Notes: generated by a model from the sequence alone, not told the origin. 63,312 nt of DNA from an uncultured bacterium (GCA_964423875.1 CAYRGS010000001.1:2704-66015), one strand, 5' to 3'; positions 45,881 through 63,312 are shown, counted from the stretch's first letter. Program-made: numbers and translations.

Positions 45881-46018
45881 TTTTCCGCGCCGGGCGATTC
45901 GACGGATTCACCGCCGAGCGGTCCCAGGCGTCTGCTTGCGCGGGAGGGGGGCGAGGAACTTCGAGCCTCGCGTATCACGTCGGAAGAATCACATCGCGGG
46001 AAGGAATCACCCGATACA

Positions 46019-46393: not shown

Positions 46394-46612
46394 TAGCCCC
46401 GGGCGGCGCGCGCAAGGGGGGGAGGCGGGGCCGCCTAGGTTCAGAATTTGAGGCGCGTCGGGGCGCTTCACATCGAAAGGGAGTTCCTGCATGATCCCTT
46501 TCTACGCGTACCCGCATGCGCCAAATGAGCTGGTGACCCGACCGTCCCGTCGGCTTCGACCCGGGGGGTCCCGCGACCCGGTGGTCATCGATTCCGAGGC
46601 TGGAAACCCGAA

Positions 46613-47479: not shown

Positions 47480-47588
47480 CGGAAAGGGAGAGGGGTCGCG
47501 CCCCGGATTGCTCCATGGCAATAACGTGATACAGGTTATGGAGCCGGAAGAAGCGGCCGTTTCTCCCGCGATGGAAGGGTTAGAAGGT

Positions 47589-47656
47589 AAGGGTTGACCC
47601 TTCCTGTTCCTTCAACCCCCTCTGGTTTGACACGGCGGCCATCCAGATTTTAAGGT
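47589..47656 (+). promoter_or_regulatory. Inverted repeat plus candidate promoter in front of the NicX-like gene
   Basis: AAGGGT-tg-ACCCTT inverted repeat at 47589-47602, nested in the larger GGAAGGGT...ACCCTTCC symmetry. Then TTGACA (47627-47632), 18-nt spacer, TAAGGT (47651-47656). If this promoter is used, the real start codon is probably ATG 47697 rather than GTG 47658. Confidence 0.35.
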
Positions 47657-47657
47657 T

Positions 47658-48779
47658 GTGGACAATTTTCCGGTTGAAACTTTGCGTCCAGATCCGATGG
47701 AGGAAATTTTGGACTCGCTATGGGATCTGATGGAAGGGGCGCGAAACTGTGTTCGAGGCTACACCCGCGTCAAGTCGGGGGAAAAGGTCTGCATTTGGAC
47801 GGACCGCTCGGCAGAGGTCGATCCCCGGGTGGTGGAGGCCTTCGGCGTGGCGGTGGAGGAAGTCGGGGCCGAGGCGTTTCTCCTGTCCTCCGGGTCGGTG
47901 ATCCATCGTCTCAAACAGCCCTTGCAAAAGCCCGTGCTCGCGGCCATAAAGGAGGCGGACGTCCTCCTGAGCTTTCAGCGGCTCGAGAACGCGGCGACGA
48001 TCCACAACAACGATATTTCCGCCCTCTTGTTTTCCACCCCGCTTCGGAACACGGCCGTCATCAGCCTGACGCCCGAGCTTTTGGCTTCGGAGTGGGCGCG
48101 TTTTCCCGCTGACCTACTCTTTTTCATCTGCCGAAAAATCCGTGACCAAGCTCTGTCGTCGGGGACCGATGTTTTCCGCTTGACTGATCCCTGCGGCTCC
48201 GATTTGATGGGTCGCATTCCCTACGGTTACGGCTTCAAGTACGTTGAGCCGCCGAAGAAGTGGCAGTTCTTCCCGGGTGGGGAGATGGCGGAGCTCCCGG
48301 CTCCTCCAGTCAACGGCACGCTGGTCTTTGAGCAGTTGGAGGGATTCGAGGGTTTTGTGAGCGAGCCCATTCGCCTGACGATCGAAGACCAGTGGGTGAC
48401 GCGGGTCGATGGGGGCGACGAGGCTCGCTGGTTCCGGGGGCGGATGGACCGCTACGAGAACGGGAACTTTTTCTGCGAGGTCGCCATTGGTGCTCACCCA
48501 AAGGCCCCGGTTGCGGTGGGGCTGAAGACTCGGGCGATGGACACTATTGCCCACCGCCACTCGGGTACCTTCCACTGCGGCGTGGGCAAGTGGGGGGCGC
48601 CTGGTATGGAGGTATCGAGCGATTGGCACTGGGACGGCGGGGGCCTTCATCCGACGTTCACGCTGGGGGACGTTGTTTTGGTCGAAAACGGAAGGCTCAC
48701 GGCCCTCGACGACCCTGAAGTCCGCGAGTTTGCCTCCAAATACGGACACCCTGACGATGTCTTGGCGGAGGTTTGGTAA
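47658..48779 (+). CDS. NicX-like protein (M29 aminopeptidase-fold, 2,5-dihydroxypyridine dioxygenase family homolog)
   Basis: Collinear with my recollection of P. putida NicX. IRLTIEDQWVTRVDGGDEARWFRGRM matches ITLEIEKGFITGIHGG; FCEVAIGAHPKA matches ISHIGWGLQPRA; SDWHWDGGGLHPTFTLGDVVLVENG matches CHLDIPLRNCDIYLDD. This preserves a His...His-x-Asp metal triad pattern. The start is GTG 47658 or ATG 47697. Confidence 0.6.
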   Translation: MDNFPVETLRPDPMEEILDSLWDLMEGARNCVRGYTRVKSGEKVCIWTDRSAEVDPRVVEAFGVAVEEVGAEAFLLSSGSVIHRLKQPLQKPVLAAIKEADVLLSFQRLENAATIHNNDISALLFSTPLRNTAVISLTPELLASEWARFPADLLFFICRKIRDQALSSGTDVFRLTDPCGSDLMGRIPYGYGFKYVEPPKKWQFFPGGEMAELPAPPVNGTLVFEQLEGFEGFVSEPIRLTIEDQWVTRVDGGDEARWFRGRMDRYENGNFFCEVAIGAHPKAPVAVGLKTRAMDTIAHRHSGTFHCGVGKWGAPGMEVSSDWHWDGGGLHPTFTLGDVVLVENGRLTALDDPEVREFASKYGHPDDVLAEVW

Positions 48780-48857
48780 GCAAGGGGGAGACTTGTTTAT
48801 CGGGTTCCGCCGGGGCTTTTTGGATCGACTCCGGCAGGCTTTCAGGAGGGGCGGCGG

Positions 48858-49604
48858 ATGTACGGATGGCGGGCGTTGATCGGGATGATTTGGCCGGCGG
48901 GGGGTCCCGTTCCCGAAGACGAAGTCAGGATGGCGGCGCCCGAGGGCGTCACCTTCGCCAGCACCAGGATGTACGTCGAGGAGGTGAGCCCGAAGGGGCT
49001 CGAGGAGATGGTCACGCACGTCGAGCGGGCGGCCCGGGAGGTTGCCATCATGAAGGCCGATTGCTGCCTCGTGGGCGGGACGCCGGCCGGTTTCTTCAAG
49101 GGCCACGCTTTCAATCTGGAGCTCACCGGGCGCGCCCGGGAGGCGTCCGGCCTGCCCAGCAAGACCCAGGCCACGGCGGTCGTGGAGGCCCTGCGCGAGC
49201 TCGACCTCCGCCGGATCGTCGTCGCTACTGCTTACATCGACGAGCTGAACGACCTCCTCCGGACGTTTTTGGAAGAGGCTGGTTTCGAGGTCCTGGCCCT
49301 GAAGGGCCTTCGCGAGCGGTACAACTGGGACATCCACCGGCTTCCGCCGAGCGCTGCTTACCGCCTCACCATGGATGCTGTGAAAGAGGTCTCCGACGCG
49401 GATGGGGTCTTCATCAGCTGCGGGGGGCTCCGGACGTTCGAGGTCATCGAAACACTGGAAAAGGACTTGGGCCTGCCCGTGGTGACCAGCAATCAGGCGG
49501 CCCTGTGGGCGGGACTTGGCATGACCCGGGTGAGTGAGCCCGTCGAAGGGTACGGGCGGCTGCTGAGGATGGACAGGAGCGCACGGGAGCAGGTTGGAGC
49601 GTAA
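48858..49604 (+). CDS. Maleate cis-trans isomerase-like enzyme (Asp/Glu/hydantoin racemase superfamily)
   Basis: 248 aa with a good RBS (GGAGG, 8 nt upstream). It has two candidate catalytic Cys in the expected halves (KADCCLVGGT and VFISCGGLRT), as in maleate isomerases. Arylmalonate decarboxylases keep only one. Confidence 0.65.
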   Translation: MYGWRALIGMIWPAGGPVPEDEVRMAAPEGVTFASTRMYVEEVSPKGLEEMVTHVERAAREVAIMKADCCLVGGTPAGFFKGHAFNLELTGRAREASGLPSKTQATAVVEALRELDLRRIVVATAYIDELNDLLRTFLEEAGFEVLALKGLRERYNWDIHRLPPSAAYRLTMDAVKEVSDADGVFISCGGLRTFEVIETLEKDLGLPVVTSNQAALWAGLGMTRVSEPVEGYGRLLRMDRSAREQVGA

Positions 49605-49788
49605 GGGCGGCGATCCTGTGTGGGCCGTCCTCACGCTGCGTTGCGCGTTGCCTTCAAACAGGTTCGTAGAACGTCGGACTCAATCCCGCGCAGCGGGTGA
49701 GCCCGCAAAATCAGGGTGAGTCCACGATTTCCATTTGGTCCACGGGTGTAAACCGCGGTAAGGAATCTGGGCCGCTCGCAGACGTTCC

Positions 49789-50784
49789 TCAGACCATCGC
49801 GACGTCGAGTAGCGTCGATTTGGCGAACACCTCCTCCGGGGTAAGCTTCCTCTCCGACAGTCCTTGCTCGAACGAATACCGGGTGAACGTTTCGATGGTG
49901 GTCCGGTTGGCCTCTACGCCGTACGCCCAGTAGTCCTCGCCCAGGATCTTCTTGCAGTCCTCGATTTCGCTGATCACCCAGGGAAGGGAGGCCCCCGGCA
50001 CTCCTGTGTACTCCAGAATTTCCATGCAATGGTTTTTGGCCTCACAGAAGGCGGCGTACAGGTTCTGAGCTGCCCAGGGGTGCTTTTTGAGAACGGACTC
50101 CTTGATGACCACCAAGTGCATGATTGGAAAGCACCCCGTCCGTCTGTAGTAGTCGATCTCCACTTCCTTGTAGTTGGGGAAAAGTCGGACGACGTTGGAC
50201 GAAGTCCTGAAGAACGCCGGAGGGGCCGTAGCGGTGAACAGGGCGTCGATTTCGCCGGAATCCAGCATCTCGTCGAGGGTCTTGGGCTCGGGAGCGAACT
50301 CGATTGTAATCGAAGGGGGCAGGTTGAGGTCCACCCGATCCTTTCGGCCCCATGACTCCTGCCCGCCCGTGACCCAGGTCACGCCCTCCGGGTCCACACC
50401 GTGCTCGTGGTGCATAATCCCACGAATCCACACCACGGCCGACATGGCGTACTCGGGAACCCCTATGCGTCTCCCAGCAAGGTCCTCCGGCTTTTGGATC
50501 CCGGCGTTCTTATTGATGAACACGCACGCGTGTCGGAAGATTTTGGAAAGGAAAACGGGGATCGCGACAAACGGGGGATTGGGCCGCGAGCGAAAGATCA
50601 AATAGGCGGAGAAGCTCATCTCCGAGGCATCGAACTCCTGGTGTTGACACATCCGCCAGAAGGTGTCTATCACCGGCAGGCGGATGAAGTTCAGGTCAAT
50701 CCCGACGGGTTTGACCGTTCCATCCTCCAGGGCCTTGATCCGGTCGTATTCCGAGCACGCAAAATCGATCTTGATGTTCGCCAC
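49789..50784 (-). CDS. 4,5-dihydroxyphthalate decarboxylase (PhtD)-like protein, periplasmic-binding-protein fold
   Basis: GTG 50784 with GGGAG RBS. CSEYDRIKALEDGTVKPVGIDLNF...FDASEMSFSAYL...FVAIPVFLSKIFRHACVFINKNAGIQKPEDLAGRRIGVPEYAMSAVVWIRG is collinear with the PhtD/Pht5 family as I recall it. Confidence 0.65.
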   Translation of the reverse strand: MANIKIDFACSEYDRIKALEDGTVKPVGIDLNFIRLPVIDTFWRMCQHQEFDASEMSFSAYLIFRSRPNPPFVAIPVFLSKIFRHACVFINKNAGIQKPEDLAGRRIGVPEYAMSAVVWIRGIMHHEHGVDPEGVTWVTGGQESWGRKDRVDLNLPPSITIEFAPEPKTLDEMLDSGEIDALFTATAPPAFFRTSSNVVRLFPNYKEVEIDYYRRTGCFPIMHLVVIKESVLKKHPWAAQNLYAAFCEAKNHCMEILEYTGVPGASLPWVISEIEDCKKILGEDYWAYGVEANRTTIETFTRYSFEQGLSERKLTPEEVFAKSTLLDVAMV

Positions 50785-50922
50785 GGTCGTTCTCCCATGG
50801 ATAAGCGAAGAGGCGAGATCTCATTCTCCCTTCGGCCTCGAAGCGAAACTCAATCCGTCCCGTCCGGCTTCCAAACAGAGTCGAGTCTTTCTCTCCCCCG
50901 CCGCCCGAAAGGAATCCGGTCC

Positions 50923-51873
50923 TTACTCCACGCCAATTTCTCTTAGGAACCTCCGGTAAGCGAGGGCGACGCCGTCGGGTCCCTTGACGTGAAGCTCTTC
51001 GGCTAGGTCAAGCGGAAGCTCCTCCGGCCGCTGATTTTCCACAATCACCTGATCTTGGTTGTTGATGATTTCCGCGAACCTTTGCGGATTTCCTTCCTGG
51101 TCATAGTTTCGGGTGATGATCAGAAACCGGGTGCACTCATCGGCCGATACCGGCATGCAAACAAAGCTCAGCGTCTCCCGCCTGCCGTCGGTTTCGTCCT
51201 TCCACTGATAGATGGAAAAAGGCCGGGTCAGGCGGTAGTTGCGTGTATGGGGAACCGGGTGGACCCGGTCGGGGAGGTTCGTATAGCCGAAGCGGAGCTC
51301 TTCCCCATCCCGCTCCACGTCGATGTCGGGTATTCGCGGATGATCGCGGTCCCCCAGGATGCCTTCGTGAATCCACGGGAAATGGGCGAAGTCCACGAAG
51401 TTCTCGATGGCCCGAGCGGCGCCGCATTTCCAGTTCCGCTGGTCCCGGACGACAATGCGGTGGCTCGGGTCCTCGATGGCCGGAAGCTCGGGAATGGGCG
51501 TCCGGGATTTTTCGGACATGCAGACCCAAACGATGCCGTACCGCTCCTCGGCCCGGTGCCGGGTGAGGCAGGCCTTCTTCGGAATGGGGTGGTCCGGCGG
51601 AACGGAGGGAATGCGGGTGCACCTGCCCTCGGCGTTGTAAGACCAGCCGTGATACGCGCAGACGATCTCCTCGCCCTCCACCCACCCGAGCGATAGGGGG
51701 GTTCCCCGGTGAATGCAAAGGTCGTTGAACGCCGCCCACCGATTTCCCAGACGGCAAATGACGATTCGCTCGTCCAAGAGCCTTGCCGCGTAAGGCCGCT
51801 CCCCCACATTTTCCGCCAGGGTAACCGGGTGCCAGTATTCCCGCAACGCGGGCCAAAGGTCGCCTTCGCGCAT
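50923..51873 (-). CDS. Rieske [2Fe-2S] non-heme iron oxygenase, phthalate-family (alpha-only) type
   Basis: Rieske motif CIHRGTPLSLG...CAYHGWSY. Mononuclear iron motif ENFVDFAHFPWIH (E-x3-D-x2-H-x4-H). ATG 51873 is preferred over TTG 51900. No beta subunit or reductase is adjacent. Confidence 0.85.
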   Translation of the reverse strand: MREGDLWPALREYWHPVTLAENVGERPYAARLLDERIVICRLGNRWAAFNDLCIHRGTPLSLGWVEGEEIVCAYHGWSYNAEGRCTRIPSVPPDHPIPKKACLTRHRAEERYGIVWVCMSEKSRTPIPELPAIEDPSHRIVVRDQRNWKCGAARAIENFVDFAHFPWIHEGILGDRDHPRIPDIDVERDGEELRFGYTNLPDRVHPVPHTRNYRLTRPFSIYQWKDETDGRRETLSFVCMPVSADECTRFLIITRNYDQEGNPQRFAEIINNQDQVIVENQRPEELPLDLAEELHVKGPDGVALAYRRFLREIGVE

Positions 51874-51949
51874 TTTCTTTCTCGAATCTCCCCGTGCCAA
51901 TTCTGCCTCCCGGTCAGGGCGCTGGATGCCGCGCCTTCACTGCTTCCCC

Positions 51950-53227
51950 TCAGCCCGCCCCGGCCTCTCGATTACAGATATCCATCGCCACACGGGCATA
52001 GGCCCTGGCGGCTTTCCACAGGTCGTCCGCGTGAATGGCCATCCGCAATTTCCCCTCGGTGAGGTCCATGCCGAAGGAAGGTCCATACGTGGCCGCCGGG
52101 ATTTGGACCTCGTTGAAGATGTTCATGTCGCGCCACATGCTGGTGATGGGCGGGGGGACGGTCTTCATGGGTTCGCCCACGACCTGGTCGTGGGCCCGCC
52201 GGATGGCCTCGACCAACGGTTCGTGCCCCTTCGCGATGTATCCCCTGCGCGTCATGTAGGGACGAACCTCGGCCTCGACGCCCGTCTCGGCGATGACTCG
52301 CTCGATCTCCGGCTGGACGAACAGGGGGTCCTTCCCGGGAGGGATCCGGACGTCCAGATAGAGACTGCACCGGCCCGCGGTATTGGCGAGCTTGGTCGGG
52401 ACCCCGGCCCGGATGGCGCCCATGCACGCGTTGGGCCGGATGAGGCCCCCCTCGAATTCCATGCTTTCGCGCTCGATGTATTCGTTCGCCCAGCTCTCCA
52501 GGGCGTTGACGACCCGGGCTATCCGGACGATGGCGTTGGGGTTGTCGGCGAAGGTGGTGGGCCGGGGAATGGTGGGGGTGTAGTACGCCGTGCCCCGGAC
52601 GGTGATCTGAAAGTACGTGCACCCGCACTGGGCCCAGGTTGTGGAGAAGTCGGTGCACTCGGCCACCAAGGCGTAGTCGGCGAAGACGCCGTGGTCCACC
52701 AGCCGGCGCGCTCCCACCCCCTTTCCCACGTACCGGGAAGATTGGAACTCGTCCACCGGGGCCGAGCCGATCTCCCCGACCACGGCGGTGAGGTGGAGGT
52801 CGCCTTTGAGCCGCACGCCGCCGTCCCGGATGGCCCTGGCCGCCAGGAACGTGGCCGCGAGCGGCCCCTTGTCGTTCATCACCCCGTGGCCGAACAGGAG
52901 GTCGCCTTCTCTCCAGGCCCGTGTGTACTCTGGCAGGATATCCCCGGCGGACCAGAAGTCGTCCGCCCCCCCGTACTTGGTGTCCATGTGGGCGTTGAAG
53001 ATGAGGGAAGCGCCCCCGCCCGTTCCCTTGAGCAAGGCGGCCACGTTGAACCGCCCGGGGGCGACCGTTATCTTCCGGGGATCGAATCCGTTTTCCGTCA
53101 GCCAGCCGAAGACCTCCTCGCCCATGGCCTCTTCGCTCCCGGTCGGGCTCGGGATGTTCGCCAGACGCAAAGCCAGCTCCGCGAGTTCTTGCCGGTCGAT
53201 GCCGGCCAGAACCGTATCGATGTTCAT
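51950..53227 (-). CDS. M20-family metallo-amidohydrolase (ArgE/DapE/ACY1-like)
   Basis: ATG 53227 with GGAAGGG RBS (track start TTG 53242). IPSPTGSEEAM...ASLIFNAHMDT is typical of M20 metal-binding regions; 425 aa. Confidence 0.8.
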   Translation of the reverse strand: MNIDTVLAGIDRQELAELALRLANIPSPTGSEEAMGEEVFGWLTENGFDPRKITVAPGRFNVAALLKGTGGGASLIFNAHMDTKYGGADDFWSAGDILPEYTRAWREGDLLFGHGVMNDKGPLAATFLAARAIRDGGVRLKGDLHLTAVVGEIGSAPVDEFQSSRYVGKGVGARRLVDHGVFADYALVAECTDFSTTWAQCGCTYFQITVRGTAYYTPTIPRPTTFADNPNAIVRIARVVNALESWANEYIERESMEFEGGLIRPNACMGAIRAGVPTKLANTAGRCSLYLDVRIPPGKDPLFVQPEIERVIAETGVEAEVRPYMTRRGYIAKGHEPLVEAIRRAHDQVVGEPMKTVPPPITSMWRDMNIFNEVQIPAATYGPSFGMDLTEGKLRMAIHADDLWKAARAYARVAMDICNREAGAG

Positions 53228-53303
53228 CCGATTCCCTTCCAATCGGCGGGCGCTCGTATCCGGCCTTGGTGTTGGAATGGCGGAGAGCTTCCCGGACTCT
53301 ATC

Positions 53304-53426
53304 TTACGGCTTGATCCCCGGGAGAAACTCGTTCGTGTAAATGTTCTCGACGGGAACGCGCGTCTTCAGCTTGAACAGTTTGGCGATCAGGTCCCTGGAA
53401 TTCTCCGTCCCGGACTGCCGAGTGGC
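53304..53426 (-). pseudogene. Possible remnant of a solute-binding protein C-terminus fused in frame after the EamA stop
   Basis: The 40 codons after the EamA TAA, in the same frame, read ATRQSGTENSRDLIAKLFKLKTRVPVENIYTNEFLPGIKP then stop. The ending resembles C-termini of NMT1/TauA-type binding proteins. This is a weak call from memory. Confidence 0.25.
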
Positions 53427-54296
53427 TTAATGCCCCAGGCCCGTGATAACGGCCGCACCGGCCACAATCAGGGCAGACCCGAGAAAGAGCCGGGCTGTGA
53501 CCTGCTCTTTTTCCCTCAGGAAGATCCAGGCGATCAACACCACAAGGAGAGGGAAGGTGTGGACCAGCGGAATGACGACGCTCACGTTGCCCAAACGAAG
53601 ACCCTCCATCAGCATGTAGAGGGCCAGGGCGATCCCCAGCATGTGAATGAAATATAAGGCCAACCCCTTGGGGTGGAGGGTCAGCCTGGAGCCCGCTGGC
53701 ATGACAGGAAGCACCAGGATGAGCGCCAGCACCGCCCCCAAATTTCCGATCGCCATACCCGTTGTCGATGATGGGATGTAAGCAAGCCCAATTTTCCTGA
53801 AGGTGTGCGATACAGCGAACATAATGGCCGCCAGCACGGCAAACGCATAGCCTGATTTATTGTCTGTGGCTCCTTTTTTTTCATAAGCGATTGCGCCCAC
53901 GCCGACGACTATGGTCAGGGTCCCCAGCCAAACCCAGGCATTCGGCCGTTCTCCCAGAAAAAGGATAGCCGCGGCGGCGCTGAATATGGGAGAGGTTCCC
54001 AAAACCGTTGCTGATCGGGCGACGCCGATTCGGGCGAAAGCCGCAAAATAGCAGATGACGGCGAAACCGGGGTCAAAGGCGCCTGAAGCGAAAAACCACC
54101 AGCCTCCAGCATTGAAGATGTCGGGGCGGGGGGAAATCGAAAGGGCCAGGAGTCCGAAAATGATGAGGTGGACGACGGCCTGCATCAGCGCCCCCGTATA
54201 CGGGGAGGCGTACCGTACCGCGATGCGCGCCGCGAATTCCGAACAGGCGAATGCCGTGGCAGAGTACAGGGCAAGGGAGACAGGCGTGTAGAACAT
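53427..54296 (-). CDS. EamA/DMT-family transporter
   Basis: 289 aa, ten predicted TM helices in two EamA-like halves. More AT-rich than the flanking DNA by eye. Contains an A8 run (EKKG codons, 53874-53881). Confidence 0.8.
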   Translation of the reverse strand: MFYTPVSLALYSATAFACSEFAARIAVRYASPYTGALMQAVVHLIIFGLLALSISPRPDIFNAGGWWFFASGAFDPGFAVICYFAAFARIGVARSATVLGTSPIFSAAAAILFLGERPNAWVWLGTLTIVVGVGAIAYEKKGATDNKSGYAFAVLAAIMFAVSHTFRKIGLAYIPSSTTGMAIGNLGAVLALILVLPVMPAGSRLTLHPKGLALYFIHMLGIALALYMLMEGLRLGNVSVVIPLVHTFPLLVVLIAWIFLREKEQVTARLFLGSALIVAGAAVITGLGH

Positions 54297-54471
54297 GAGG
54301 CGGCCGGAACTCCAGTCCTCCGGACGGGATCAAAAAAGATGCTGACCGGAATTTTCCCATTTCAAATCCGGACAGACCTGTACCGACCACTCGCTACTGT
54401 TTAGCACGATTAGATCACCCTCTACCGGACCTGTCAACCGGAGTTCGGGTGCCAGAAAGCCCGACCTGGGT

Positions 54472-54499
54472 GATTCTATGGACACCATACATAATTCTC
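54472..54499 (+). repeat. Copy A of a short repeated motif (GATTCT-NNGG-ACACCATAC-N-TAATT)
   Basis: gattctatggacaccatacataattctc. Compare copy C at 56109-56137, gattctggggacaccatacttaatttct. Confidence 0.6.
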
Positions 54500-54532
54500 G
54501 GCTTTTGGGTTGCGTCTCCATCTTGTCGGGGC

Positions 54533-54841
54533 ATGGCAAGAATCGCATGGTACGTCGAACTCAATCCGGTACGGGCTGAGGACCCCGGGACGTATCCATG
54601 GAGGGGCGCATATCTCAGGCAGAGGCAACGATCTGCTGAAGGCAAGCCCCTGCTTGAAAGGGTCGGGAATTGGAGGGACTTTCTTCTGGGTGGCGTATCC
54701 GAGGAGGAGATCGAGAGGATACAACGTTATGAGAGGACAGGCAGACCCTTGGGAATGACGGTTTTGTTGGGAAGCTTGAAGGGCCCTAGGGAGGCGCCGG
54801 AAAACTCCATCACGGATAATCGGAGAGGCATTGGGTCGTAG
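54533..54841 (+). pseudogene. C-terminal fragment of an IS200-like/RayT-type (Y1, COG1943) transposase
   Basis: ARIAWYVELNPVRAEDPGTYPWRGAYLRQ...TGRPLGMTVLLGSLKG matches the conserved ...YIHLNPVRAGLV..PEDYPWSSY...GRPLG C-terminal half. The N-terminal HUH/Tyr catalytic half is missing. Confidence 0.6.
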
Positions 54842-54883
54842 CCTGCAACGGCGGAGGCTAGGGCGAAAAAGGGGGCGCAAGCA

Positions 54884-54912
54884 GAAATGAGGATGGTGTC
54901 CCCCCGGATTAC
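54884..54912 (-). repeat. Copy B of the repeated motif, inverted relative to copy A
   Basis: The reverse complement reads gtaatccggggggacaccatcctcatttc. Together with copy A it brackets the RayT-like fragment (~440 bp). Confidence 0.5.
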
Positions 54913-54916
54913 CCAG

Positions 54917-54942
54917 AACGGACCATCCGCAAGGTCCGTTTT
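54917..54942 (+). terminator. Terminator-like hairpin
   Basis: AACGGACC-atccgcaa-GGTCCGTT (perfect 8-bp stem) followed by TT CGCT. It lies between the RayT-like fragment (+) and the DUF3568 gene (-). Confidence 0.4.
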
Positions 54943-55026
54943 CGCTATAGGTACAGCCTGTTGGAAATTTGCAGAGACTTGGGCGTAGCACTCTTCGCCT
55001 GTTGCTGATGGATTTCATCCAGACCG

Positions 55027-55614: not shown

Positions 55615-55877
55615 TTGATGAAGGCTGTCAGGAACATCTCATTTCTCGTGTCGAACAACATGAATCCGGGATTTCCCAGATGACGAGAGTTTAGCGATGC
55701 GGCGGTCCTCATGTGTCATCAAGGTGCTCATTTTACACTGATCCAGGGTCTCTTTGCAGAACCCTCTGCTCAATCGAGCGGCTACGGCCGGTTCAAAGCC
55801 GCAATCCCTTGAAGACCCAGCCCTACCGTCACGCTCACAGGAGATCGGCACAGACTTATTCCTCTGGCTCCGTCACG

Positions 55878-56099
55878 TCATTGGGTAGCCACCTTCGCAC
55901 CGAGTCTTAATCAGCTTTTCCCGAAGTGTCGCCAGCGACCGGTGCTTCACCGCTCTCGGCAATGCCAGCCTCCGCAGGAAATTGCCCAGGTTGTACGCCA
56001 AGGCAAACAGTTGCAGGCGAACCTGATTTTCTTCAAAGCCGTGGCAGGACAGGCGCGTCCAGTTCAGGACGTACTTGCCCTCCTTGATGTGGGAAATTC
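55878..56099 (-). pseudogene. Fragment of an IS1380-family (DDE group 1) transposase
   Basis: My translation of the minus strand is GISHIKEGKYVLNWTRLSCHGFEENQVRLQLFALAYNLGNFLRRLALPRAVKHRSLATLREKLIKTRCEGGYPMT*. The ...WTRLSCH.F..N.VRLQLFALAYNL.NFLR.LALP......SL.TLREKLIK pattern is the conserved C-terminal region of this family. It is N-terminally truncated at the palindrome, with frame decay beyond 55878. Confidence 0.7.
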
Positions 56100-56108
56100 C
56101 TACTGGGG

Positions 56109-56159
56109 GATTCTGGGGACACCATACTTAATTTCTTTTAAAATAAGTATGGTGTCCCC
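56109..56159. repeat. Copies C and D of the repeated motif, forming a near-perfect 45-nt palindrome
   Basis: GGGGACACCATACTTA (56115-56130), loop atttcttttaaaa, TAAGTATGGTGTCCCC (56144-56159): a perfect 16-bp stem. It sits exactly at the truncation point of the IS1380 fragment. Confidence 0.85.
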
Positions 56160-56191
56160 CCCCTCCGCGAAGGTCATTCCATCGATGATGT

Positions 56192-57541
56192 TCACTTTCC
56201 CCCCCGAAGCACCCGCCACATGATGGGCGGTTGGAACAGGCTCTTCCGGGGGGCCAACAGATTGGCAACTCTCAGAAACGCGCCATACACAACCGTATCG
56301 CGCTGTGTCGCCCGCTGTAATTTGGCCATGTAGGCATTTTTCAGATTGGTCCCGCGGGTCTTCCTGCCCTGGGTTTCCGGGAAATTGAAATCCTGGCCCG
56401 CCGCTAATGCCCACGCGAGGTCCACCACCTTGGCCGTCCGTTTGAAGAACAGCTTCCACAGCGTGTCCAACGGCCCGCGGCCGGTCAAGACCTCGTCCAG
56501 TACGGCCGCTTGCAGTGCGGCCGAGGCCATCGCTTGCGCATAGACCGGATTGAAACTGGCGATGGCGTCCCCCAGGACAAGATAACCGCCCGGGAATCGG
56601 GTTAATTTCTGATACTCGCGGCGCAGATTGGACGGGGTTTTGTGGTGGAAGAAATCGGTCAGGGGCTCAAGATGAGGGAGGATGTTGTAGATGTCCGGCG
56701 CGGCCAGGCCGCGGGCGAATTCGAGGAAACCCGCCTCGTCGGCCGGGGCGTGATCGCCTCCCCAGCCGACCAGCGATACGTTCCAGCGGTCATCCTCCAT
56801 CGGGACAAAGAGGCCGGCGCGCTTGGTGCCCGGCGGAGCGGCCGCGATGATGATCAACTCCGCGCCTACGAGATCACCGGGCCGGCGGCGGTAGATGCGC
56901 GTGGTGTAGCCAAGGCCGATCTTGACGGCGTTCTCCTCCGGGCCGGCGTAACCCAACGCCTCCAGCCATCTCAGTCCGGCGGACCCGCGACCCGTGGCGT
57001 CAATCACCAATTCGGCCGTCCACTCCTCTTCCCGGCTGTTCTCGCCCCGGCGGACGGTCCGCACCCCGGTGACGCGGCCGCCTTTGCCGCTCGAGAGCAG
57101 GGCCGTGACCGTGGAGCGGTCAACCGCGGAGACGTTGGGCAGGGAGAACACGCGGCGGCGAACCTCCCACTCGAGGAACGGCCGGCTCGCCAAGGCGAAA
57201 TACACGTCGCTCTTGAATTGCCGCCGGTAGCCGCCGGAAACGTGCCAGCGGATGGCGGTTCCCACATCTGTAATGGAGGCGCCGCCCTTGCGCAATGCGT
57301 CAGGCAGGTCGGGAAAGTACCGGGTCAGCACGTTGAGTCCGTTGGCCAGCACGGTGTGCGGGTGACGGACCTGGGGCTGTCCCTTGCGCGCTTCGGGCCG
57401 ATCATTCATTTCGTCGCGCTCGATGAGCGTGACCCGGTCGAAGTGATCGCTGAGAACCCGGGCCGCCAACAATCCAGCGAAACTGCCGCCGATCACGATG
57501 GCCTGCTGTCCGCGTTTGGCTCTTCTGTTGTTCACTTTCAT
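56192..57541 (-). CDS. FAD-dependent monooxygenase/oxidoreductase (group A flavoprotein-like)
   Basis: 449 aa. N-terminal dinucleotide fold (QAIVIGGSFAGLLAARVL), VIDATGRGS, and a second FAD motif region (GDAIASFNPVYAQAM). Substrate unknown. Confidence 0.8.
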   Translation of the reverse strand: MKVNNRRAKRGQQAIVIGGSFAGLLAARVLSDHFDRVTLIERDEMNDRPEARKGQPQVRHPHTVLANGLNVLTRYFPDLPDALRKGGASITDVGTAIRWHVSGGYRRQFKSDVYFALASRPFLEWEVRRRVFSLPNVSAVDRSTVTALLSSGKGGRVTGVRTVRRGENSREEEWTAELVIDATGRGSAGLRWLEALGYAGPEENAVKIGLGYTTRIYRRRPGDLVGAELIIIAAAPPGTKRAGLFVPMEDDRWNVSLVGWGGDHAPADEAGFLEFARGLAAPDIYNILPHLEPLTDFFHHKTPSNLRREYQKLTRFPGGYLVLGDAIASFNPVYAQAMASAALQAAVLDEVLTGRGPLDTLWKLFFKRTAKVVDLAWALAAGQDFNFPETQGRKTRGTNLKNAYMAKLQRATQRDTVVYGAFLRVANLLAPRKSLFQPPIMWRVLRGGK

Positions 57542-57832
57542 GCAATCCTCGGAAGAAACGGATTTTCAGTCGCCGCCTCCGGCGCTCCCCATCCCCTCAA
57601 AAGGCCTCTCGATCGCCCAGTGAGGCCGCTTCGGAAGGAGAAACCCTGGCGGGTCGTCGATGTTGTACAAGCCGCTGAGGAATGATTTCATCTTGATGTC
57701 GTCGGCCTCCACGATGATCTCCCGGGTCGACCGGAAAATTTCGTCCGTCCTTCAGCCCGGTCCCGAGCGCCTCCGGTCCGATGTGGGCCACAGGTCCGGC
57801 GCAAGGCCCCCATGGAGACCCGGGAGGTGAAT

Positions 57833-58636
57833 TCAGCCGGGGATCACGCGAAAATTCATCTCGATCGGGGGGGCTTCCCGCAAAGCGGCGTGGAGGTCCT
57901 CCTCCGTGTCGAAAGGGTGCCCGGGGATGCGGAGACCTTGGACGGAAGCCTCGAGCGAATCCCGGTTGAAGGGCCAGGGCGTCAGTTGGAGACACATCCC
58001 GGTCGGACCCGCCGGGTCGGCCCACTTGACGCCGATGTCGCCAAAGTAGTCTCCCCCCATGGGGACGCCCGCCATCCGGTCCAGGTGGGTCCAACCGTTG
58101 CACAGGATGAGCGAGAGCAAGTCCAGCACCGTCACGAACCGGCCGTTTCGGTGGACGGCTTCATTCGTCACCGCCCGCTCAAATCCCGGCTGATCTGTCA
58201 ATTCGCGGAAGATCTCCGCTTGCCTGGCTTCCAGTTTCGAGACATAGGCGTGGATTTTGGCTTCTTCTTCCGGCGCCAAACCGCGGAGACTTAGAACGAG
58301 CTCATACACGTTGATCGCGTGGCGATTGACCAGCGCGGCCGCGTAAGGGCGTCCCTTCTCGTAGGCCTTCTCCACCGTGCGGCGGAAGTTGTCGATGGTG
58401 ACTTCCAGAGGGGTTCTGTTGAAGTTGACCAAAAAATGGTCCGCGTCCAGGGTGGGTTTTTCCTCCCATTCCACCCAGCCTTCGTCGTGATCGTAAGTCG
58501 CCAGAAGAACTTCAGCCCAGGGTTCGGGGCGGACGAATTCACCGGCGCCCCAGTGCTCTGCCAGGGCGCCCGAGAGCCGGGCGTGCTCCGGCTGAGGGAT
58601 GAGAACGAAATCCCCTTCCCATTCTCTACGAATCAT
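57833..58636 (-). CDS. DUF3891-like protein of unknown function
   Basis: 267 aa: IPQPEHARLSGALAEHWG...ATYDHDEGW. Family assignment is from memory and no catalytic motif is recognised. Confidence 0.5.
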   Translation of the reverse strand: MIRREWEGDFVLIPQPEHARLSGALAEHWGAGEFVRPEPWAEVLLATYDHDEGWVEWEEKPTLDADHFLVNFNRTPLEVTIDNFRRTVEKAYEKGRPYAAALVNRHAINVYELVLSLRGLAPEEEAKIHAYVSKLEARQAEIFRELTDQPGFERAVTNEAVHRNGRFVTVLDLLSLILCNGWTHLDRMAGVPMGGDYFGDIGVKWADPAGPTGMCLQLTPWPFNRDSLEASVQGLRIPGHPFDTEEDLHAALREAPPIEMNFRVIPG

Positions 58637-59160
58637 GGAATGTCTCCCTTTCTTGCGGCCCCCGCCGCCTCGCCGCGCCCGGAGAGACCGGTCTCAGGCG
58701 GTTCCAAGGCGAGCCTTCAAGACCAAACCGGGGGTTGGCCTCTCCAGAATTATTTCCCATTTCATCCCGCGGCGATGCCTTTTCGAGCCCCATCGCCGAT
58801 TAAACACATTGAACCTATCCCAATGTCCCAGTCAACAGCCTCTCGAAGCCCGCATAAGGGCGGGTCGACCGCCATTCGCTATGAACAATACGCTGTTTTC
58901 CCTATGAAGCCGGTCCATTGGATCATAACGGATGCCTGGTATTTTTTCGATCTTTGAACGAATTGACGTTATGATTTCAAAAGAGGTTCGCTCTGACGAA
59001 GGCGGCGGCCTCGCGAAGCCGCGGAATCCTGAACCGTGAACGGCGTTTTTCTACGATGGGAGAATGAATGCGAGCGTTCCATCGGCCGGGTGAACGTTGC
59101 CCGGTCCGGGCTTCATCTGCATCACGGGACCTTCCGAACGCGATTTCCGAGATGGGCGAG

Positions 59161-59184
59161 AGGCGCCCCCGGCGCCTTCTTTGT
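59161..59184 (+). terminator. Terminator/attenuator-like hairpin 15 nt upstream of the RBS of the molybdo-hydroxylase gene
   Basis: aGGCGCC-ccc-GGCGCCt followed by TCTTTGT, at the end of a 560-nt non-coding region. A 3-nt loop is tight, so the call is tentative. Confidence 0.35.
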
Positions 59185-59198
59185 GCGGGAGAGGAACG

Positions 59199-61988
59199 AT
59201 GAGCGAGAGAGTTTCCTATCACCTAAATGGCGAGGCGGTCACGGCGGATGTCCCCTCGAAGTGGTCCTTGGTCCGGCATCTGCGGGATGACCGCCGCCTG
59301 ACCGGGGCCAAGATCGGCTGCACACCGGGCGACGGGGACTGCGGGACATGCACGGTGCTTGTGGACGGCCGCCCCCAAAGGGCCTGCCTGATGGAGATGG
59401 CCCAGGTGGAGGGGAAACGGGTGGAGACCGTCGAGGGCCTGGCCCGGGATGGCACCCTCCATCCCGTTCAGGAGGCCTTCGTCCGCACCGGAGCGGTGCA
59501 ATGCGGCTTTTGCTCCCCGGGGTTCATCATGGCGGCCAAGGCCCTCCTCGACGCCAACCCCGGGCCGACGACCGAGAAGATCCGAGAGGCCCTGTCCGGC
59601 GTTCTGTGCCGGTGCACGGGGTATGTCAAGGTGGTTCAGGCAGTGGAGGATGCCGCCGCCTTCCTGGCCGAGGGGAAATGGCCCCCGGTGAGGACCCAGG
59701 TGGCTCAGGAGACCGAGGGGGTCATCGGCGTCGCCGTCTCTCCCAAGGACGGCTCCCCGAAAGTCACCGGGGAGGCCCGTTTCGCCGACGACATCTACCT
59801 CGATGGGATGATCCACTGCAAGCTGCTGTTCAGCGAGCATACCCACGCCGAGATTCTTTCCATCGACACGGCCGAGGCCGAGAAGGACCCCGGGGTTCTC
59901 CTCGTTCTGACGGCCAAGGACCTTCCGGGGACCAATCTCACCGGGGTGAAGGTCAAAGACAAACCCATCTTCGCCGATGACCGGGTGCGGGCGCGGACCG
60001 ATGTGGTTGCGGCCGTTTACGCCGAGACCGAGGAGGCCGGACGCGAGGCCGTGAAGAAGATCCGCGTGGCGTATCGGGAGTTGCCCGCCGTCTTCGACGG
60101 CGCGGAAGCCCTGAAGGAGGGCGCGCCCCTCGTCCATCCGGAGAACGAAACCGGAAACATCCTGGCCCGGGTCGAGGTCAAACGGGGCGACGCGGCCAAG
60201 GTCTTCGCCGATTCGGACATCGTTGTCGAGAACGAGTACGGCATCTCATGCGTGGACCACGCCTTTATCGAGCCGGAATCCGCCGTGGGCTACGTGGACG
60301 AAAGGGGGGTGGCCACGCTGTGGATCGCCACCCAGGCCCCATTCCGGGATCGGCACCAGTTGACCGAAATTCTGAACCTGCCCGTGGAGAAGATCCGGCT
60401 CATCATTCCGGCCATCGGGGGGGCCTTCGGGGGCAAGGAAGACATCACCTTGCACCCCTACGTTCTCCTGGGGGCCATGCGGACGGGCCGGCCGGTCAAG
60501 CTCACCACAACGCGGGCGGAGTCTTTTCTCATCCACCATAAAAAACACGCCATGCGCCTGCGCTATAAGACCGGGGCCACGAAGGACGGAAAGCTCACGG
60601 CGCTGCACGCACGGATCACGGCCGATGGAGGCGCCTACGCCTATGCCGGTCCGATGATCATTCATCAGTGCGCCATCTTCGCCCCCGGCCCCTACTACGT
60701 TCCGCACCTCGACATCGAGGGGATCCGCGTCTACACCAACAAGGCATCTTGCGGGGCCTTCCGGGGGTTCGGGATCAACCAGGCCACTTTCGCCATGGAG
60801 AGCCAGTTGGACATCCTGGCCCGGGAGCTGGGCCTGGACCCCATCGACCTCCGGCTCCGCAACGCCCTGGAACCGGGCAAACCCATCTCCACGGGGCAAG
60901 TCCTCCAGGCGAGCGTGGGTTACAAAGAATGCCTGAATCTGCTCCGCGAGGCCCTCTCGGCCCATCGTCCGAACGGCGGAGGCGGGAAGATCGGGGTCGG
61001 CGTGGCGGGGGCGTTCAAGAATTGCGGCATCGGCCAGGGGGTGCCGGACCATGCCGGCGCCGTAGTGGAGCTGACCGGAGAGGGGCGTCTTCAGGTCCGC
61101 TGCGGGGCCGCCGACTTGGGCGAGGGGTGCACCACCGTGGTCGCCCAGATGACCGCCGAGACCCTGGGCATCCCGTACGACGAGGTCGTCGTCATGACCC
61201 CGGACACGGAAACCACCCCCGACGGGGGCCAAACGAGCGCGTCCCGCCAGACCCTCTTCACGGGCAACGCCACCGTCGGAGCGGCGCGGGCGTTCCGGGA
61301 GAAGCTCATGGGCTTCGTCGCCGGGGAGTTCGAGATCGCCTCTGAAGATCTCGAGTGGAGAGACGGCCGGGCCTTTTTTTCGAAGGGCGGACAACTTGTC
61401 GCCGCAAACAAGGCCGTGGCCGATCGGGCCGCCGCCAAGGGGGTGTCCCTGCAAGCCGAACACAAGTACATGAGTCCCCGCACCTACAACCTGCTTGAAG
61501 ACGCCTCCGACGTGGACCCGGACGACTACCGCAACTATCTCGCCTTCTCCTTCGTGGCCAACGGGGCCATCGTCGAGGTGGACGAGAAGACCGGCGTGGT
61601 GAAGGTCCTCAAGATCATCGCCGCAGCGGACTGCGGCCGCATCATCTACCCGCAAGGCCTCGAGGGTCAGATCGAAGGGTGCGTCGCGATGGGCCTCGGC
61701 TACGCCTTGTCCGAGCGATATGAAATGAACCAAGGGCGGCCCGTCACGCAAACCCTCACGCAGGCGGGGATCCCGACCTTGAAGGACATGCCGGAAATCG
61801 AGCAGATGATTGTGCAGGACCCCGAGCCCGAGGGGCCCTTCGGCGCCAAGGGCTTCGCCGAGGCGGGCCTCCTGCCTACGGCCCCCGCGATCATCAACGC
61901 CATTTATGACGCCGTGGGCGTCCGGGTGATGGACCTGCCCGCAACGCCCGAAAAGGTCCTGGACCTGCTAAGGAAGAAGAAGCCATAG
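59199..61988 (+). CDS. MOP-type molybdopterin hydroxylase: fused 2x[2Fe-2S] and Moco-binding domains (xanthine dehydrogenase/aldehyde oxidoreductase family), no FAD domain
   Basis: ATG 59199 with GGAGAGG RBS. N-terminus has CTPGDGDCGTCTV (plant-type [2Fe-2S]) and QCGFCSPGFIM...CRCTGY (second cluster). A ~750-aa Moco domain follows (GGAFGGKED, catalytic-Glu region GAKGFAEAGLLPTAPAI). 929 aa, comparable to my recollection of D. gigas MOP architecture. Confidence 0.88.
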   Translation: MSERVSYHLNGEAVTADVPSKWSLVRHLRDDRRLTGAKIGCTPGDGDCGTCTVLVDGRPQRACLMEMAQVEGKRVETVEGLARDGTLHPVQEAFVRTGAVQCGFCSPGFIMAAKALLDANPGPTTEKIREALSGVLCRCTGYVKVVQAVEDAAAFLAEGKWPPVRTQVAQETEGVIGVAVSPKDGSPKVTGEARFADDIYLDGMIHCKLLFSEHTHAEILSIDTAEAEKDPGVLLVLTAKDLPGTNLTGVKVKDKPIFADDRVRARTDVVAAVYAETEEAGREAVKKIRVAYRELPAVFDGAEALKEGAPLVHPENETGNILARVEVKRGDAAKVFADSDIVVENEYGISCVDHAFIEPESAVGYVDERGVATLWIATQAPFRDRHQLTEILNLPVEKIRLIIPAIGGAFGGKEDITLHPYVLLGAMRTGRPVKLTTTRAESFLIHHKKHAMRLRYKTGATKDGKLTALHARITADGGAYAYAGPMIIHQCAIFAPGPYYVPHLDIEGIRVYTNKASCGAFRGFGINQATFAMESQLDILARELGLDPIDLRLRNALEPGKPISTGQVLQASVGYKECLNLLREALSAHRPNGGGGKIGVGVAGAFKNCGIGQGVPDHAGAVVELTGEGRLQVRCGAADLGEGCTTVVAQMTAETLGIPYDEVVVMTPDTETTPDGGQTSASRQTLFTGNATVGAARAFREKLMGFVAGEFEIASEDLEWRDGRAFFSKGGQLVAANKAVADRAAAKGVSLQAEHKYMSPRTYNLLEDASDVDPDDYRNYLAFSFVANGAIVEVDEKTGVVKVLKIIAAADCGRIIYPQGLEGQIEGCVAMGLGYALSERYEMNQGRPVTQTLTQAGIPTLKDMPEIEQMIVQDPEPEGPFGAKGFAEAGLLPTAPAIINAIYDAVGVRVMDLPATPEKVLDLLRKKKP

Positions 61989-62000
61989 GGGAGTGAGCGC

Positions 62001-63312
62001 ATGCCGAAGGACCTTCGAACCTTCATTGACTCTTTGTGCGAGGAACATCCGAACGAGATTGTCCGCGTGTCCCGACCGGTGGACCCAGCCTGGGAGATCG
62101 CCGCCGTTGTCCGCAAGTTCCAGGCCGAGAATCAATTCCCTACCCTCCTGTTTGAGGACGTGAAGGGTTCTTCGATGCCGGTCATGACCAATCTTTTCGC
62201 GTCCCGTCTGAAGCTGGCGGCGGCCCTGGACGTCTCCGTCGAGGACACGTTGAATGAATACATGCGTCGGGAGGGCCGTCCTCTTGAGCCCCGCTGGGTG
62301 GAGGACGGTCCGGTCAAGGAGTGCAAGTGGATCGGCGAGGAGGCGGATCTGTCCCGCCTGCCCATCGTCACGCACGGCGAGAAGGACGCCGGACCCTACA
62401 TCAACCCCGGCGTGGGGATCGCCAAGGACCCTGACACCGGGGTTCACAACGCCGGGATCTACCGGCACATGTACCGGAACCCCCGGGAGATGGGCATCGA
62501 CATCGGGCCGGAATCCCACCTCGCGCACATCCTGCGAAAGCGGGAAGGGAAGGGGGAAGACCTGGAATTCGCCGTGGCCCTGGGGCATCATCCTGCCTTC
62601 TGTCACGGTTCTCAGGTCCGGGGCCTCCTGGAGCTGGATGAATTCGCCGTTATCGGCGGGCTCCTGGGAGAGCCTCTGGAGCTGGTGAAGGGCGAGACGG
62701 TGGACCTGGGCGTCCCCGCGCGCGCCGAGATCGTCATCGAGGGCCGGATCCGGGCCGGCGTCCGGGAAGATGAAGGCCCCTTGGGCGAGTTCACCTGGCA
62801 CTACGGCCCCGCCCGGGAAAATCCCGTAGTCGAAATCACGGCCATTACCCACCGGAGGGACGCCATTTTTCTGGACCTCAACAACCTGTACCTGGACCAC
62901 AATTACCTGGGCCTGCTGGGCCGGGAGTCCAACCTGTACAAGCGAGTGAAGGAAGCGATCCCGTCCATGCGTAATGTGGTCGTGGCGGAATCGGGCGGTT
63001 GCCGCTTGACCGGATTCGTCCAGATCCGCAAAGAGTTCGAGGGCCAGGGAAAGAACGCGGCCCTAGCGGCCCTGGCGGCGGATCCCTATATGAAGATGGT
63101 GGTGGTCGTGGATGAGGATGTGGACATCTACAGTGAGCGCGAGGTCATGTGGGCCATGACCACCCGCACCCAGCCGGACCGGGATTTCTTCTTTGTTCCG
63201 GGATCCTTCGTGTGTATCATCGACCCCTCGGGTCATACGGGCAGAAGCCGCAACGAACACGGGGGGATGAACACCCGCGTCGGCATCGACGCCAGCAGGC
63301 CGGTGGATATTC
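62001..63312 (+). CDS. UbiD-family (prFMN-dependent) decarboxylase, 3' end outside window; not present in the supplied ORF track
   Basis: Hand translation from ATG 62001 (GGGGAG RBS, 12 nt after the previous stop) stays open to the window end. It reads MPKDLRTFIDSLCEEHPNEIVRVSRPVDPAWEIAAVVRKF...DAGPYINPGVGIAKDPDTGVHNAGIYR...REDEGPLGEFTWHYG...VVVVDEDVDIYSEREVMWAMTTRTQPDRD. These are typical UbiD motifs. Confidence 0.88.
   Translation, partial: MPKDLRTFIDSLCEEHPNEIVRVSRPVDPAWEIAAVVRKFQAENQFPTLLFEDVKGSSMPVMTNLFASRLKLAAALDVSVEDTLNEYMRREGRPLEPRWVEDGPVKECKWIGEEADLSRLPIVTHGEKDAGPYINPGVGIAKDPDTGVHNAGIYRHMYRNPREMGIDIGPESHLAHILRKREGKGEDLEFAVALGHHPAFCHGSQVRGLLELDEFAVIGGLLGEPLELVKGETVDLGVPARAEIVIEGRIRAGVREDEGPLGEFTWHYGPARENPVVEITAITHRRDAIFLDLNNLYLDHNYLGLLGRESNLYKRVKEAIPSMRNVVVAESGGCRLTGFVQIRKEFEGQGKNAALAALAADPYMKMVVVVDEDVDIYSEREVMWAMTTRTQPDRDFFFVPGSFVCIIDPSGHTGRSRNEHGGMNTRVGIDASRPVDI

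Follow-up and report, generated by a model that had tools for sequence, protein, structure and literature searches.

The nic and pic pathways combine a molybdenum (Mo) hydroxylase, a monooxygenase, a decarboxylase, an enzyme of the NicX fold and a member of the Asp/Glu-racemase superfamily. The Fe(II) ion of NicX is bound by His265, Ser302, His318 and Asp320, and the substrate is positioned by Glu177 and His189 (PMC7910607). Racemases and isomerases of the Asp/Glu-racemase superfamily use two catalytic Cys, the first of which occupies the position of Gly74 in arylmalonate decarboxylase (AMDase); the natural AMDase substrate was still unidentified in 2016, and true AMDases have been reported beside MR/MLE and TTT transporter genes (PMC4996985). 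Relatives of these enzymes are encoded together in a 63,312-nt stretch of DNA from an uncultured bacterium (GCA_964423875.1 CAYRGS010000001.1:2704-66015; hereafter the window), in which ten genes, g1 to g10, run from 47.6 kb to the window end. We read the cluster as an accessory region resident in its lineage, in which several independently transcribed modules would act on carboxylated N-heterocycles or cyclic amides; the probability that we assign to this reading, suggested by gene content and gene neighbourhoods, is about one half.

Open reading frames (ORFs) were called with the guidance of the G+C content at third codon positions (GC3), and families were assigned by Pfam, NCBIfam and PDB searches. 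These analyses bear out the gene content given in an earlier annotation of the window (the original prediction), and the ten genes lie about where it had placed them. Most of its family calls hold; those of g1, g2, g4 and g10 have been corrected. The description of the region as a mosaic patch of accessory catabolic enzymes is supported as well, but decarboxylase-type genes number three (g2, g3 and g10) rather than two. Comparison loci in other genomes and contigs are denoted by L numbers.

The g1 product has the fold of NicX and a different active site. Translation was set to start at ATG 47709 rather than GTG 47658 because homologues measure 353-356 aa. The homologues carry PF26233 'NicX', and the AlphaFold2 (AF2) model of g1 (pLDDT 94) has the two-domain NicX fold; its top Foldseek match is NicX 7cn3 (TM 0.70, E 1e-20, 19% identity), and M29 aminopeptidases come second (TM 0.55-0.63). 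Two of the four iron ligands, His318 and Asp320, are retained in both pairwise and profile alignments. His265 is replaced by a Glu, invariant in the close family, and Ser302 by Gly/Ala, an invariant His being found two residues upstream. Glu177 and His189 correspond to Gly and Phe, respectively, in the profile alignment to 7cn3. The close family is small: when 1.84 billion cluster representatives were searched exhaustively with g1, 590 relatives were found at E<=1e-3, and just 21 at E<=1e-30. Residues were counted in 173 aligned sequences (g1 and 172 near-full-length relatives). Position 265 is Glu in 145 of the 173 and His in 4, and the full Glu/His/His/Asp tetrad is found in 115. Since the fold is kept but ligands and substrate residues have changed, g1 is, as judged from the alignments, a rare sister family of NicX, and is not demonstrable as a 2,5-dihydroxypyridine (2,5-DHP) dioxygenase. 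The name NicX-like used in the original prediction fits the fold; the implied 2,5-DHP-cleaving active site, of which two of four ligands and neither of the two substrate residues are left, is not supported.

The g2 gene lies 78 bp downstream of g1. Its product, formerly viewed as maleate-isomerase-like, resembles AMDase (E 2e-35, full length) more closely than maleate isomerase (E 1e-18), and shows the single-Cys arrangement of the former. Residues G74, T75, Y126, C188 and G189, by which g2 is akin to the Bordetella bronchiseptica enzyme, are kept in the alignment to 2vlb, and S76, which with T75, Y126 and G189 makes up the dioxyanion hole of AMDase, is changed to P. With Gly at the 74 equivalent, and Cys at the 188 equivalent only, the second Cys is absent, and therefore maleate-isomerase chemistry is not expected. 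The 2,5-DHP cleavage/isomerase pair proposed earlier thus fails at the metal and substrate residues of g1, as at the second Cys of g2. Yet g2 also departs from true AMDases. These have been defined by 12 published features, which include the hydrophobic-pocket residues L40, V43, Y48, V156 and M159, P14-P15 and the motif LMGTSLSF; in g2, P14 is deleted, S76P, Y48L and V156N changes are found, and the motif reads LVGGTPAGF. The score against the NCBIfam model arylmal_decarb NF052327 (184 bits) is below the cut-off (225). The genomic context differs too, as g2 adjoins NicX-like and amidohydrolase genes, and not MR/MLE and TTT genes.

The two genes are adjacent in four independent settings (window/L085, L082, L120, L086), and a decayed copy of the pair is found in L081. 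Outside the population to which the window belongs, pair members are 74-82% (g1) and 69-76% (g2) identical to those described here.

A second pair is formed by g9 and g10, which are 12 bp apart at the right end of the window. A Mo hydroxylase followed by a UbiD decarboxylase had been predicted, and this proves to be a true recurring pair, a paralogous Mo large subunit-UbiD pair being found in L081 with an isochorismatase-family gene alongside. The start of g9 is ATG 59199, preceded by the ribosome-binding site GGGAGAGG, and not TTG 59097. Pfam domains Fer2, Fer2_2, Ald_Xan_dh_C, MoCoBD_1 and MoCoBD_2 were identified in g9, which thus features two 2Fe-2S domains, an a/b hammerhead and two molybdenum cofactor (Moco) domains in one chain. 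The same fused architecture, with no flavin adenine dinucleotide (FAD) domain, is featured by the Desulfovibrio gigas aldehyde oxidoreductase MOP, the top PDB match (E 2e-124), and by Se-dependent xanthine dehydrogenase (XDH)-like enzymes, so that it is already known. In contrast, equivalog scores are all under cut-offs (730 bits versus 830 for the top NCBIfam model, Se_dep_XDH), and the C-terminal third of g9 aligns better with the alpha subunit of 4-hydroxybenzoyl-CoA reductase than with MOP. Three motifs are kept in g9: GGAFGGKE, AFRGFG and, at the C-terminus, GFAEAG (residues 885-890). We take the Glu of the first to be bovine XDH Glu802, the second to hold Arg912/Phe914, and the Glu of the third to be the catalytic Glu1261. 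The GGKE glutamate, kept in g9 when compared with MOP, is typical of purine/N-heterocycle hydroxylases. The motifs may favour an N-heterocycle pocket over an aldehyde pocket, and are best taken as a lead. Apart from the L001 copy, the nearest genome homologue of g9 is 42% identical; in 79 distant g9-related loci (L002-L080, <=42% identity) neither UbiD nor other partners were found alongside, except for one weak M20 match in L044.

The g10 product exceeds the TIGR00148 cut-off (332.5 versus 244.85 bits) and contains UbiD_N, UbiD and UbiD_C domains. Its top PDB match is 6h6v (E 4.7e-93), presumably HmfF of P. thermopropionicum. Closeness to 6h6v, and a UbiD gene directly following the Mo enzyme, recall the hmf furan pathway (HmfABC with HmfF/HmfG). 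In contrast to that pathway, neither CoA ligase nor HmfE nor UbiX is encoded here, and g9 is a single fused iron-sulfur (FeS)/Moco chain lacking a FAD subunit. UbiX may be encoded elsewhere in the genome.

The genes between the two pairs, all on the minus strand, encode enzymes of different types. The g3 product matches 4,5-dihydroxyphthalate decarboxylase (PDB 9jp7) along its length (E 9.8e-84, residues 3-324 versus chain 23-343). It belongs to a very large family (at least 6966 matches at E<=1e-30, many labelled ABC substrate-binding proteins), and the PhtD-like family is mostly uncharacterised. Similarities to the phthalate pathway include the closeness of g3 to the solved PhtD, the adjoining alpha-only Rieske gene and, elsewhere, a short-chain dehydrogenase/reductase (SDR) gene before g3 orthologues, which echoes the dehydrogenase-decarboxylase layout. 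In contrast, the cluster carries neither reductase nor dehydrogenase genes, and g4 is of the NdmA/SxtT type. The g4 protein has intact CxH...CxxH (residues 62-84) and D-x2-H-x4-H motifs, for the Rieske cluster and the mononuclear iron respectively, and a VanA_C domain. The protein thus fits the phthalate (alpha-only) family of Rieske oxygenases named in the original prediction, but the top solved relatives are the monooxygenases NdmA, SxtT and NdmB (E 6e-53 to 9e-41), whereas phthalate dioxygenase is matched in the Rieske domain alone (E 2e-22). The M20 enzyme g5 scores 114 bits against TIGR01910 (cut-off 218). The nearest solved relatives of g7, which has weak Pfam matches only, are MonCI and Lsd18/LasC, both polyether epoxidases (E about 1e-65 over almost the whole length). 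No sequence match to the DUF3891 protein g8 was found in PDB, and its single-sequence AF2 model (pLDDT 40) is unusable. The His-rich motifs PEHARLSG and YDHDEGW of g8 presumably resemble the metal site of HD domains.

The ten genes are co-localised solely in the population of the window (L001, L085). Since only pairs and a shared repertoire of families recur in relatives, the full arrangement appears restricted to this population. Distant orthologues of g1, g3 and g8 have other neighbours, in contrast to what the single pathway of the original prediction implies. In L083/L084 a DUF3891 gene (53% identical to g8) follows a NicX-like paralogue; other relatives of g1 lie close to isochorismatase, NMT1, Amidohydro_1, hydantoinase A/B, adenine-deaminase-like and EamA genes. 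Six contigs (L114-L119, of which two are near-duplicates) carry orthologues of g3 (67-76% identity). Each is preceded by an SDR gene, and flanked either by genes for a CN_hydrolase, a cupin, a protein of about 550 aa of no known type and a Mo subunit, or by those for a three-subunit Mo enzyme; no Rieske or M20 gene lies beside g3 orthologues in L114-L119. A protein of about 510-560 aa that matches no Pfam family is encoded between the PhtD-like and CN_hydrolase genes in several lineages (Table 1). Four EamA genes in tandem, with 31-33% identity to g6, are found in L087 (12.4-16.4 kb) close to a NicX-like gene, hydantoinase A/B genes and an adenine-deaminase-like amidohydrolase gene.

L001 provides a view past the window edge. 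It is 95-99% identical in nucleotides to the window over most aligned segments, and the cluster runs at least 8.7 kb further. The full-length g10 copy (L001 12803-14212) encodes 469 aa. Downstream of it lie genes for a CN_hydrolase (top NCBIfam match N-carbamoylputrescine amidase, far under cut-off), a second Rieske/VanA_C protein (66% identical to g4), a second Mo large subunit (785 aa, with no FeS or FAD subunit gene adjoining), an isochorismatase-family hydrolase (top matches RutB and BiuH), a CocE/NonD hydrolase and an M24 peptidase. Canonical partners had been reported missing from the cluster. They are indeed absent within the window, and neither the window nor the 8.7-kb extension of L001 contains a gene for UbiX, a Rieske reductase, an FAD subunit or a regulator. 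Genes of the hydrolase/amidase type, in contrast, turn up past the edge, and the missing amidase is therefore partly a window-edge effect. Mo large-subunit genes (765-785 aa) with no adjoining 2Fe-2S or FAD gene are found in six loci (Table 1), a three-subunit Mo set in L118 only.

The host, as judged from its closest relatives, is an uncultured bacterium related to Nitrospinota/Tectomicrobia. DnaB (window 26059-27492) is 93% identical to the copy on the 1.8-Mb contig, from a metagenome-assembled genome (MAG), which carries L001, and next 76-77% identical to proteins from Nitrospinota MAGs. The nearest named g1/g3 homologues (71-82% identity) reside in Candidatus Tectomicrobia and Nitrospinota MAGs. 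The host is therefore not the Geobacter-like anaerobe considered as a possibility earlier, and O2-dependent enzymes in it are unremarkable. Cluster proteins are mostly 96-99% identical to those of L001 (g8, 85%). The contrast with DnaB, a single housekeeping gene, may point to recombination between these genomes, or to constraint that is uneven.

By G+C content (GC), GC3 and synonymous-codon distance, the ten genes stay inside the spread of 36 housekeeping genes; the one exception is the GC3 of g6 (0.70, z = -2.6), the lowest of the set. The AT-rich stretches noted earlier correspond to the g6-g7 gap (54297-56191) and the g8/g9 intergenic region (GC 0.554 and 0.577, respectively, versus 0.638 in housekeeping genes), and not to genes. 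The divergent g8/g9 intergenic region (58637-59198, 562 bp) has no Rfam match and no regulator gene close by; no riboswitch or other RNA was found in an Rfam scan of 47000-63312. Window 44755-51234 has a colinear counterpart in L085, a metagenome contig (94.7% nucleotide identity), and the junction at which g1 follows the squalene/phytoene synthase gene is therefore stable. Horizontal acquisition, proposed in the original prediction, is at odds with the native codon usage, the best homologues from the same lineage and the conserved left junction. Features of genomic islands are lacking also in that mobile elements are present as remnants only, and that the cluster is found in both close relatives sampled (L001, L085). 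The region appears plastic, and in its sequence no sign of recent foreign origin is seen.

Mobile-element traces are found in the g6-g7 gap. A 42-aa C-terminal DDE_Tnp_1_4 remnant lies at 55873-56001(-) (E 2e-4, under the gathering score). The 19-nt palindromic element GGGGACACCATACTTAATT is found in four copies with <=3 mismatches (0.01 expected by chance), and no copy resides elsewhere in the window. The hairpin formed by two copies (56115-56159) is near-perfect, and an inverted pair (54480-54901) brackets about 390 bp. The copies look like repetitive extragenic palindromic (REP) or miniature inverted-repeat transposable element (MITE) sequences, judging from their layout. In L001, an intact IS3-family element (L001 5433-6751), not found in the window, is inserted at about window position 55815, and an additional 770-bp segment with an NMT1 fragment (2146-2877) is found in the g5/g6 interval (window about 53392-53402). 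As the window lacks both, the structure of the region is plastic among close relatives. Together, the 42-aa remnant, the palindromes and the L001 insertion weakly confirm the transposase debris reported earlier; the L001, L081 and L084 transposases gave no tblastn match to the window. Stretch 54449-54841 had seemed to resemble the C-terminus of a REP-associated tyrosine transposase, which Pfam did not confirm. ORF 55027-55614(-), the N-terminus of which resembles a signal peptide with a lipobox, matches DUF3568 weakly (E 0.011) and may encode a genuine small lipoprotein.

Table 1. Coordinates of the ten genes and of other features, in the window unless a locus is named
Feature	Location	Strand	Description
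g1	47709-48779	+	NicX/M29-fold enzyme; Glu257/His289/His307/Asp309 tetrad
g2	48858-49604	+	Amdase/Asp_Glu_race; single-Cys, AMDase type; Pfam Amdase E 4e-54
g3	49789-50784	-	PhtD-type decarboxylase; NMT1/substrate-binding-protein fold
g4	50923-51900	-	alpha-only Rieske oxygenase; Rieske and VanA_C domains
g5	51950-53242	-	M20 metallohydrolase, ArgE/DapE deacylase type; Pfam Peptidase_M20, M20_dimer
g6	53427-54296	-	EamA (drug/metabolite transporter family) membrane transporter; Pfam EamA E 1e-30, two repeats
g6-g7 gap	54297-56191		1.9 kb, no convincing genes; GC 0.554
g7	56192-57541	-	FAD-dependent monooxygenase or epoxidase-like enzyme
g8	57833-58636	-	DUF3891 protein; Pfam E 1.3e-40; divergent from g9
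g9	59199-61988	+	fused [2Fe-2S]x2 and Moco hydroxylase, xanthine-oxidase family; no FAD domain
g10	62001-63312	+	UbiD-family (prenylated flavin mononucleotide, prFMN) decarboxylase, truncated by window end
19-nt palindromic copies	54478-54496, 54885-54903, 56115-56133, 56141-56159
Orphan Mo large subunits	L001 16881-19238; L081 1825-4122; L114 14107-16422; L115 14181-16496; L116 9999-12314; L117 5361-6988		contig end cuts gene in L117
Protein of about 510-560 aa	L114 11040-12704; L115 11098-12777; L116 6916-8595; L117 2349-3878; L119 3084-4715

The identities of the genes, the residues at their active sites, the spacing within operons and the conserved neighbourhoods are shown by the sequences; from them we infer the chemical steps and the substrate class as follows. 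In module A (g1-g2), g1 would use a mononuclear metal held by the Glu/His/His/Asp site to cleave a ring or amide bond, and g2, of the single-Cys AMDase type, would decarboxylate the product. Module B (g6-g5-g4-g3) would lead from uptake by the EamA transporter, through deacylation by the M20 enzyme and hydroxylation or N/O-demethylation by the Rieske enzyme, to decarboxylation of the hydroxylated dicarboxylate by the PhtD-type g3. The DUF3891 protein and the flavin monooxygenase would make up module C (g8-g7). In module D, g9 would put a water-derived hydroxyl next to the ring nitrogen, UbiD (g10) would strip the ring carboxylate, and the CN-hydrolase encoded just outside the window would cut the amide. 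Several points weigh against such an arrangement. Module limits follow from strand, spacing and conservation alone, promoter and terminator scans having given chance-level results. Many of the comparison contigs are short, so that a neighbour not found there counts for little. Members of one set of families (NicX-like, isochorismatase, Asp/Glu-racemase-type, Mo hydroxylase, decarboxylases) co-recur so often that they may belong to one shared pathway in which gene order varies, and PhtD-type, FAD and Rieske enzymes suit carbocyclic aromatics equally.

Other explanations differ in what they make of the same genes. In a mainly hydrolytic pathway of the ureide/hydantoin type, g1 would be a M29-like metallo-amidase and g2 a relative of hydantoin racemases or decarboxylases; the M20, CN-hydrolase and RutB-like enzymes would serve as carbamoyl/ureido amidases, and the XDH-like Mo and NdmA-like Rieske enzymes would prepare (methylated) purine/pyrimidine-like rings. 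The flanks of g1 relatives fit this scheme, as they feature Amidohydro_1 (L083, L086, L120, L121), hydantoinase A/B (L087, L121) and adenine-deaminase-like (L087) genes, and so do the best matches of the CN-hydrolase (N-carbamoylputrescine amidase) and of the isochorismatase (RutB, BiuH), the methylxanthine N-demethylases NdmA and NdmB among the top solved relatives of g4, the XDH-type top NCBIfam models of g9, and the fold that g1 shares with M29 aminopeptidases. Equivalog scores, however, are all far under cut-offs, PhtD-type, UbiD and FAD enzymes have no known place in ureide pathways, and the first Glu of what we take to be the M29 dinuclear site is present in 33 of the 173 sequences, hence not conserved; such a pathway is unlikely. 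It is hardly probable that the genes serve one pyridine-(di)carboxylate pathway, in which hydroxylation by Mo, Rieske and FAD enzymes and decarboxylation by the PhtD-like and UbiD enzymes yield 2,5-DHP, to be cleaved by the NicX-like enzyme to maleamate/maleate for isomerization by g2. The families do mirror those of the nic/pic pathways, and Mo hydroxylase and decarboxylase genes are nearby here too. Isochorismatase-fold and Asp/Glu-racemase genes recur by g1-type genes; isochorismatase-family (NicF-fold) genes lie past the window in L001 and directly after the NicX-like gene in L121, and alpha/beta-hydrolases, which we assume to have the NicD fold, flank g1 orthologues in L081 and L082. But g1 lacks His265, Ser302, Glu177 and His189 of NicX, its Glu/His/His/Asp site replacing the His/Ser/His/Asp of the latter, and Glu prevails over His at the 265 position throughout the aligned set; g2 has one catalytic Cys, and not the two of isomerase/racemase chemistry; the isochorismatase genes score best as RutB/BiuH-like; NicC/PicB-type partners and nic/pic regulators are lacking here, and there is no co-conservation past the population of the window.

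That the genes share no function at all, rearrangement having gathered unrelated accessory genes in a flexible part of the chromosome where insertion sequences (IS) and repeats are found, is improbable. The IS3-family and NMT1-fragment indels between window and L001, the transposase remnant and the palindromic repeats would be accounted for, as would the absence of a regulator and of the usual SDR partner of g3; on the other hand, the same families recur as neighbours, in varying order, in several relatives, and both g9-g10 and g1-g2 are closely spaced, the latter being kept as a pair. Tectomicrobia are rich in natural products, and a set of tailoring enzymes for secondary metabolites could include a MonCI-like epoxidase, a SxtT-like Rieske hydroxylase and decarboxylases. 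The top solved relatives of g7 (polyether epoxidases) and g4 (which include saxitoxin hydroxylases) point that way, but such a role is very improbable: Pfam scans of the genes called in the cluster and in the 8.7 kb beyond revealed no polyketide synthase (PKS), non-ribosomal peptide synthetase (NRPS), terpene or ribosomally synthesized and post-translationally modified peptide (RiPP) core gene, and Mo hydroxylases, amidohydrolases and a transporter are typical of catabolism. Two described systems were also considered and discarded. A role in the N-demethylation of homarine to picolinate is not supported, as the known hom operon is TgnAB-like and unrelated, and the published enzyme set of the dip cluster does not match the one described here.

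All families are already known, and such clusters are common in MAGs; the lead offered by g1 and g2 aside, the modular region is one among very many catabolic clusters still unassigned there. The NicX-like/AMDase-like pair, rare and conserved as a pair, is the most useful lead, and could show a natural role of the AMDase type. What might concern specialists is a rare NicX sister family with a Glu/His/His/Asp site kept beside a single-Cys AMDase-like gene. The pair may catalyze an undescribed two-step reaction, a doubtful but specific proposal by which the NicX sister would open or hydrolyse an N-heterocycle to a malonate-type alpha-substituted acid, a substrate for AMDase-type decarboxylation; if true, this would be the first physiological context for AMDase-type chemistry. 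If the modules of the accessory region act as proposed, an uncultured lineage related to Nitrospinota/Tectomicrobia would possess a shuffled toolkit, assembled from uncharacterised sister families of NicX, AMDase, PhtD, MOP and HmfF, with which to degrade carboxylated N-heterocycles or cyclic amides.

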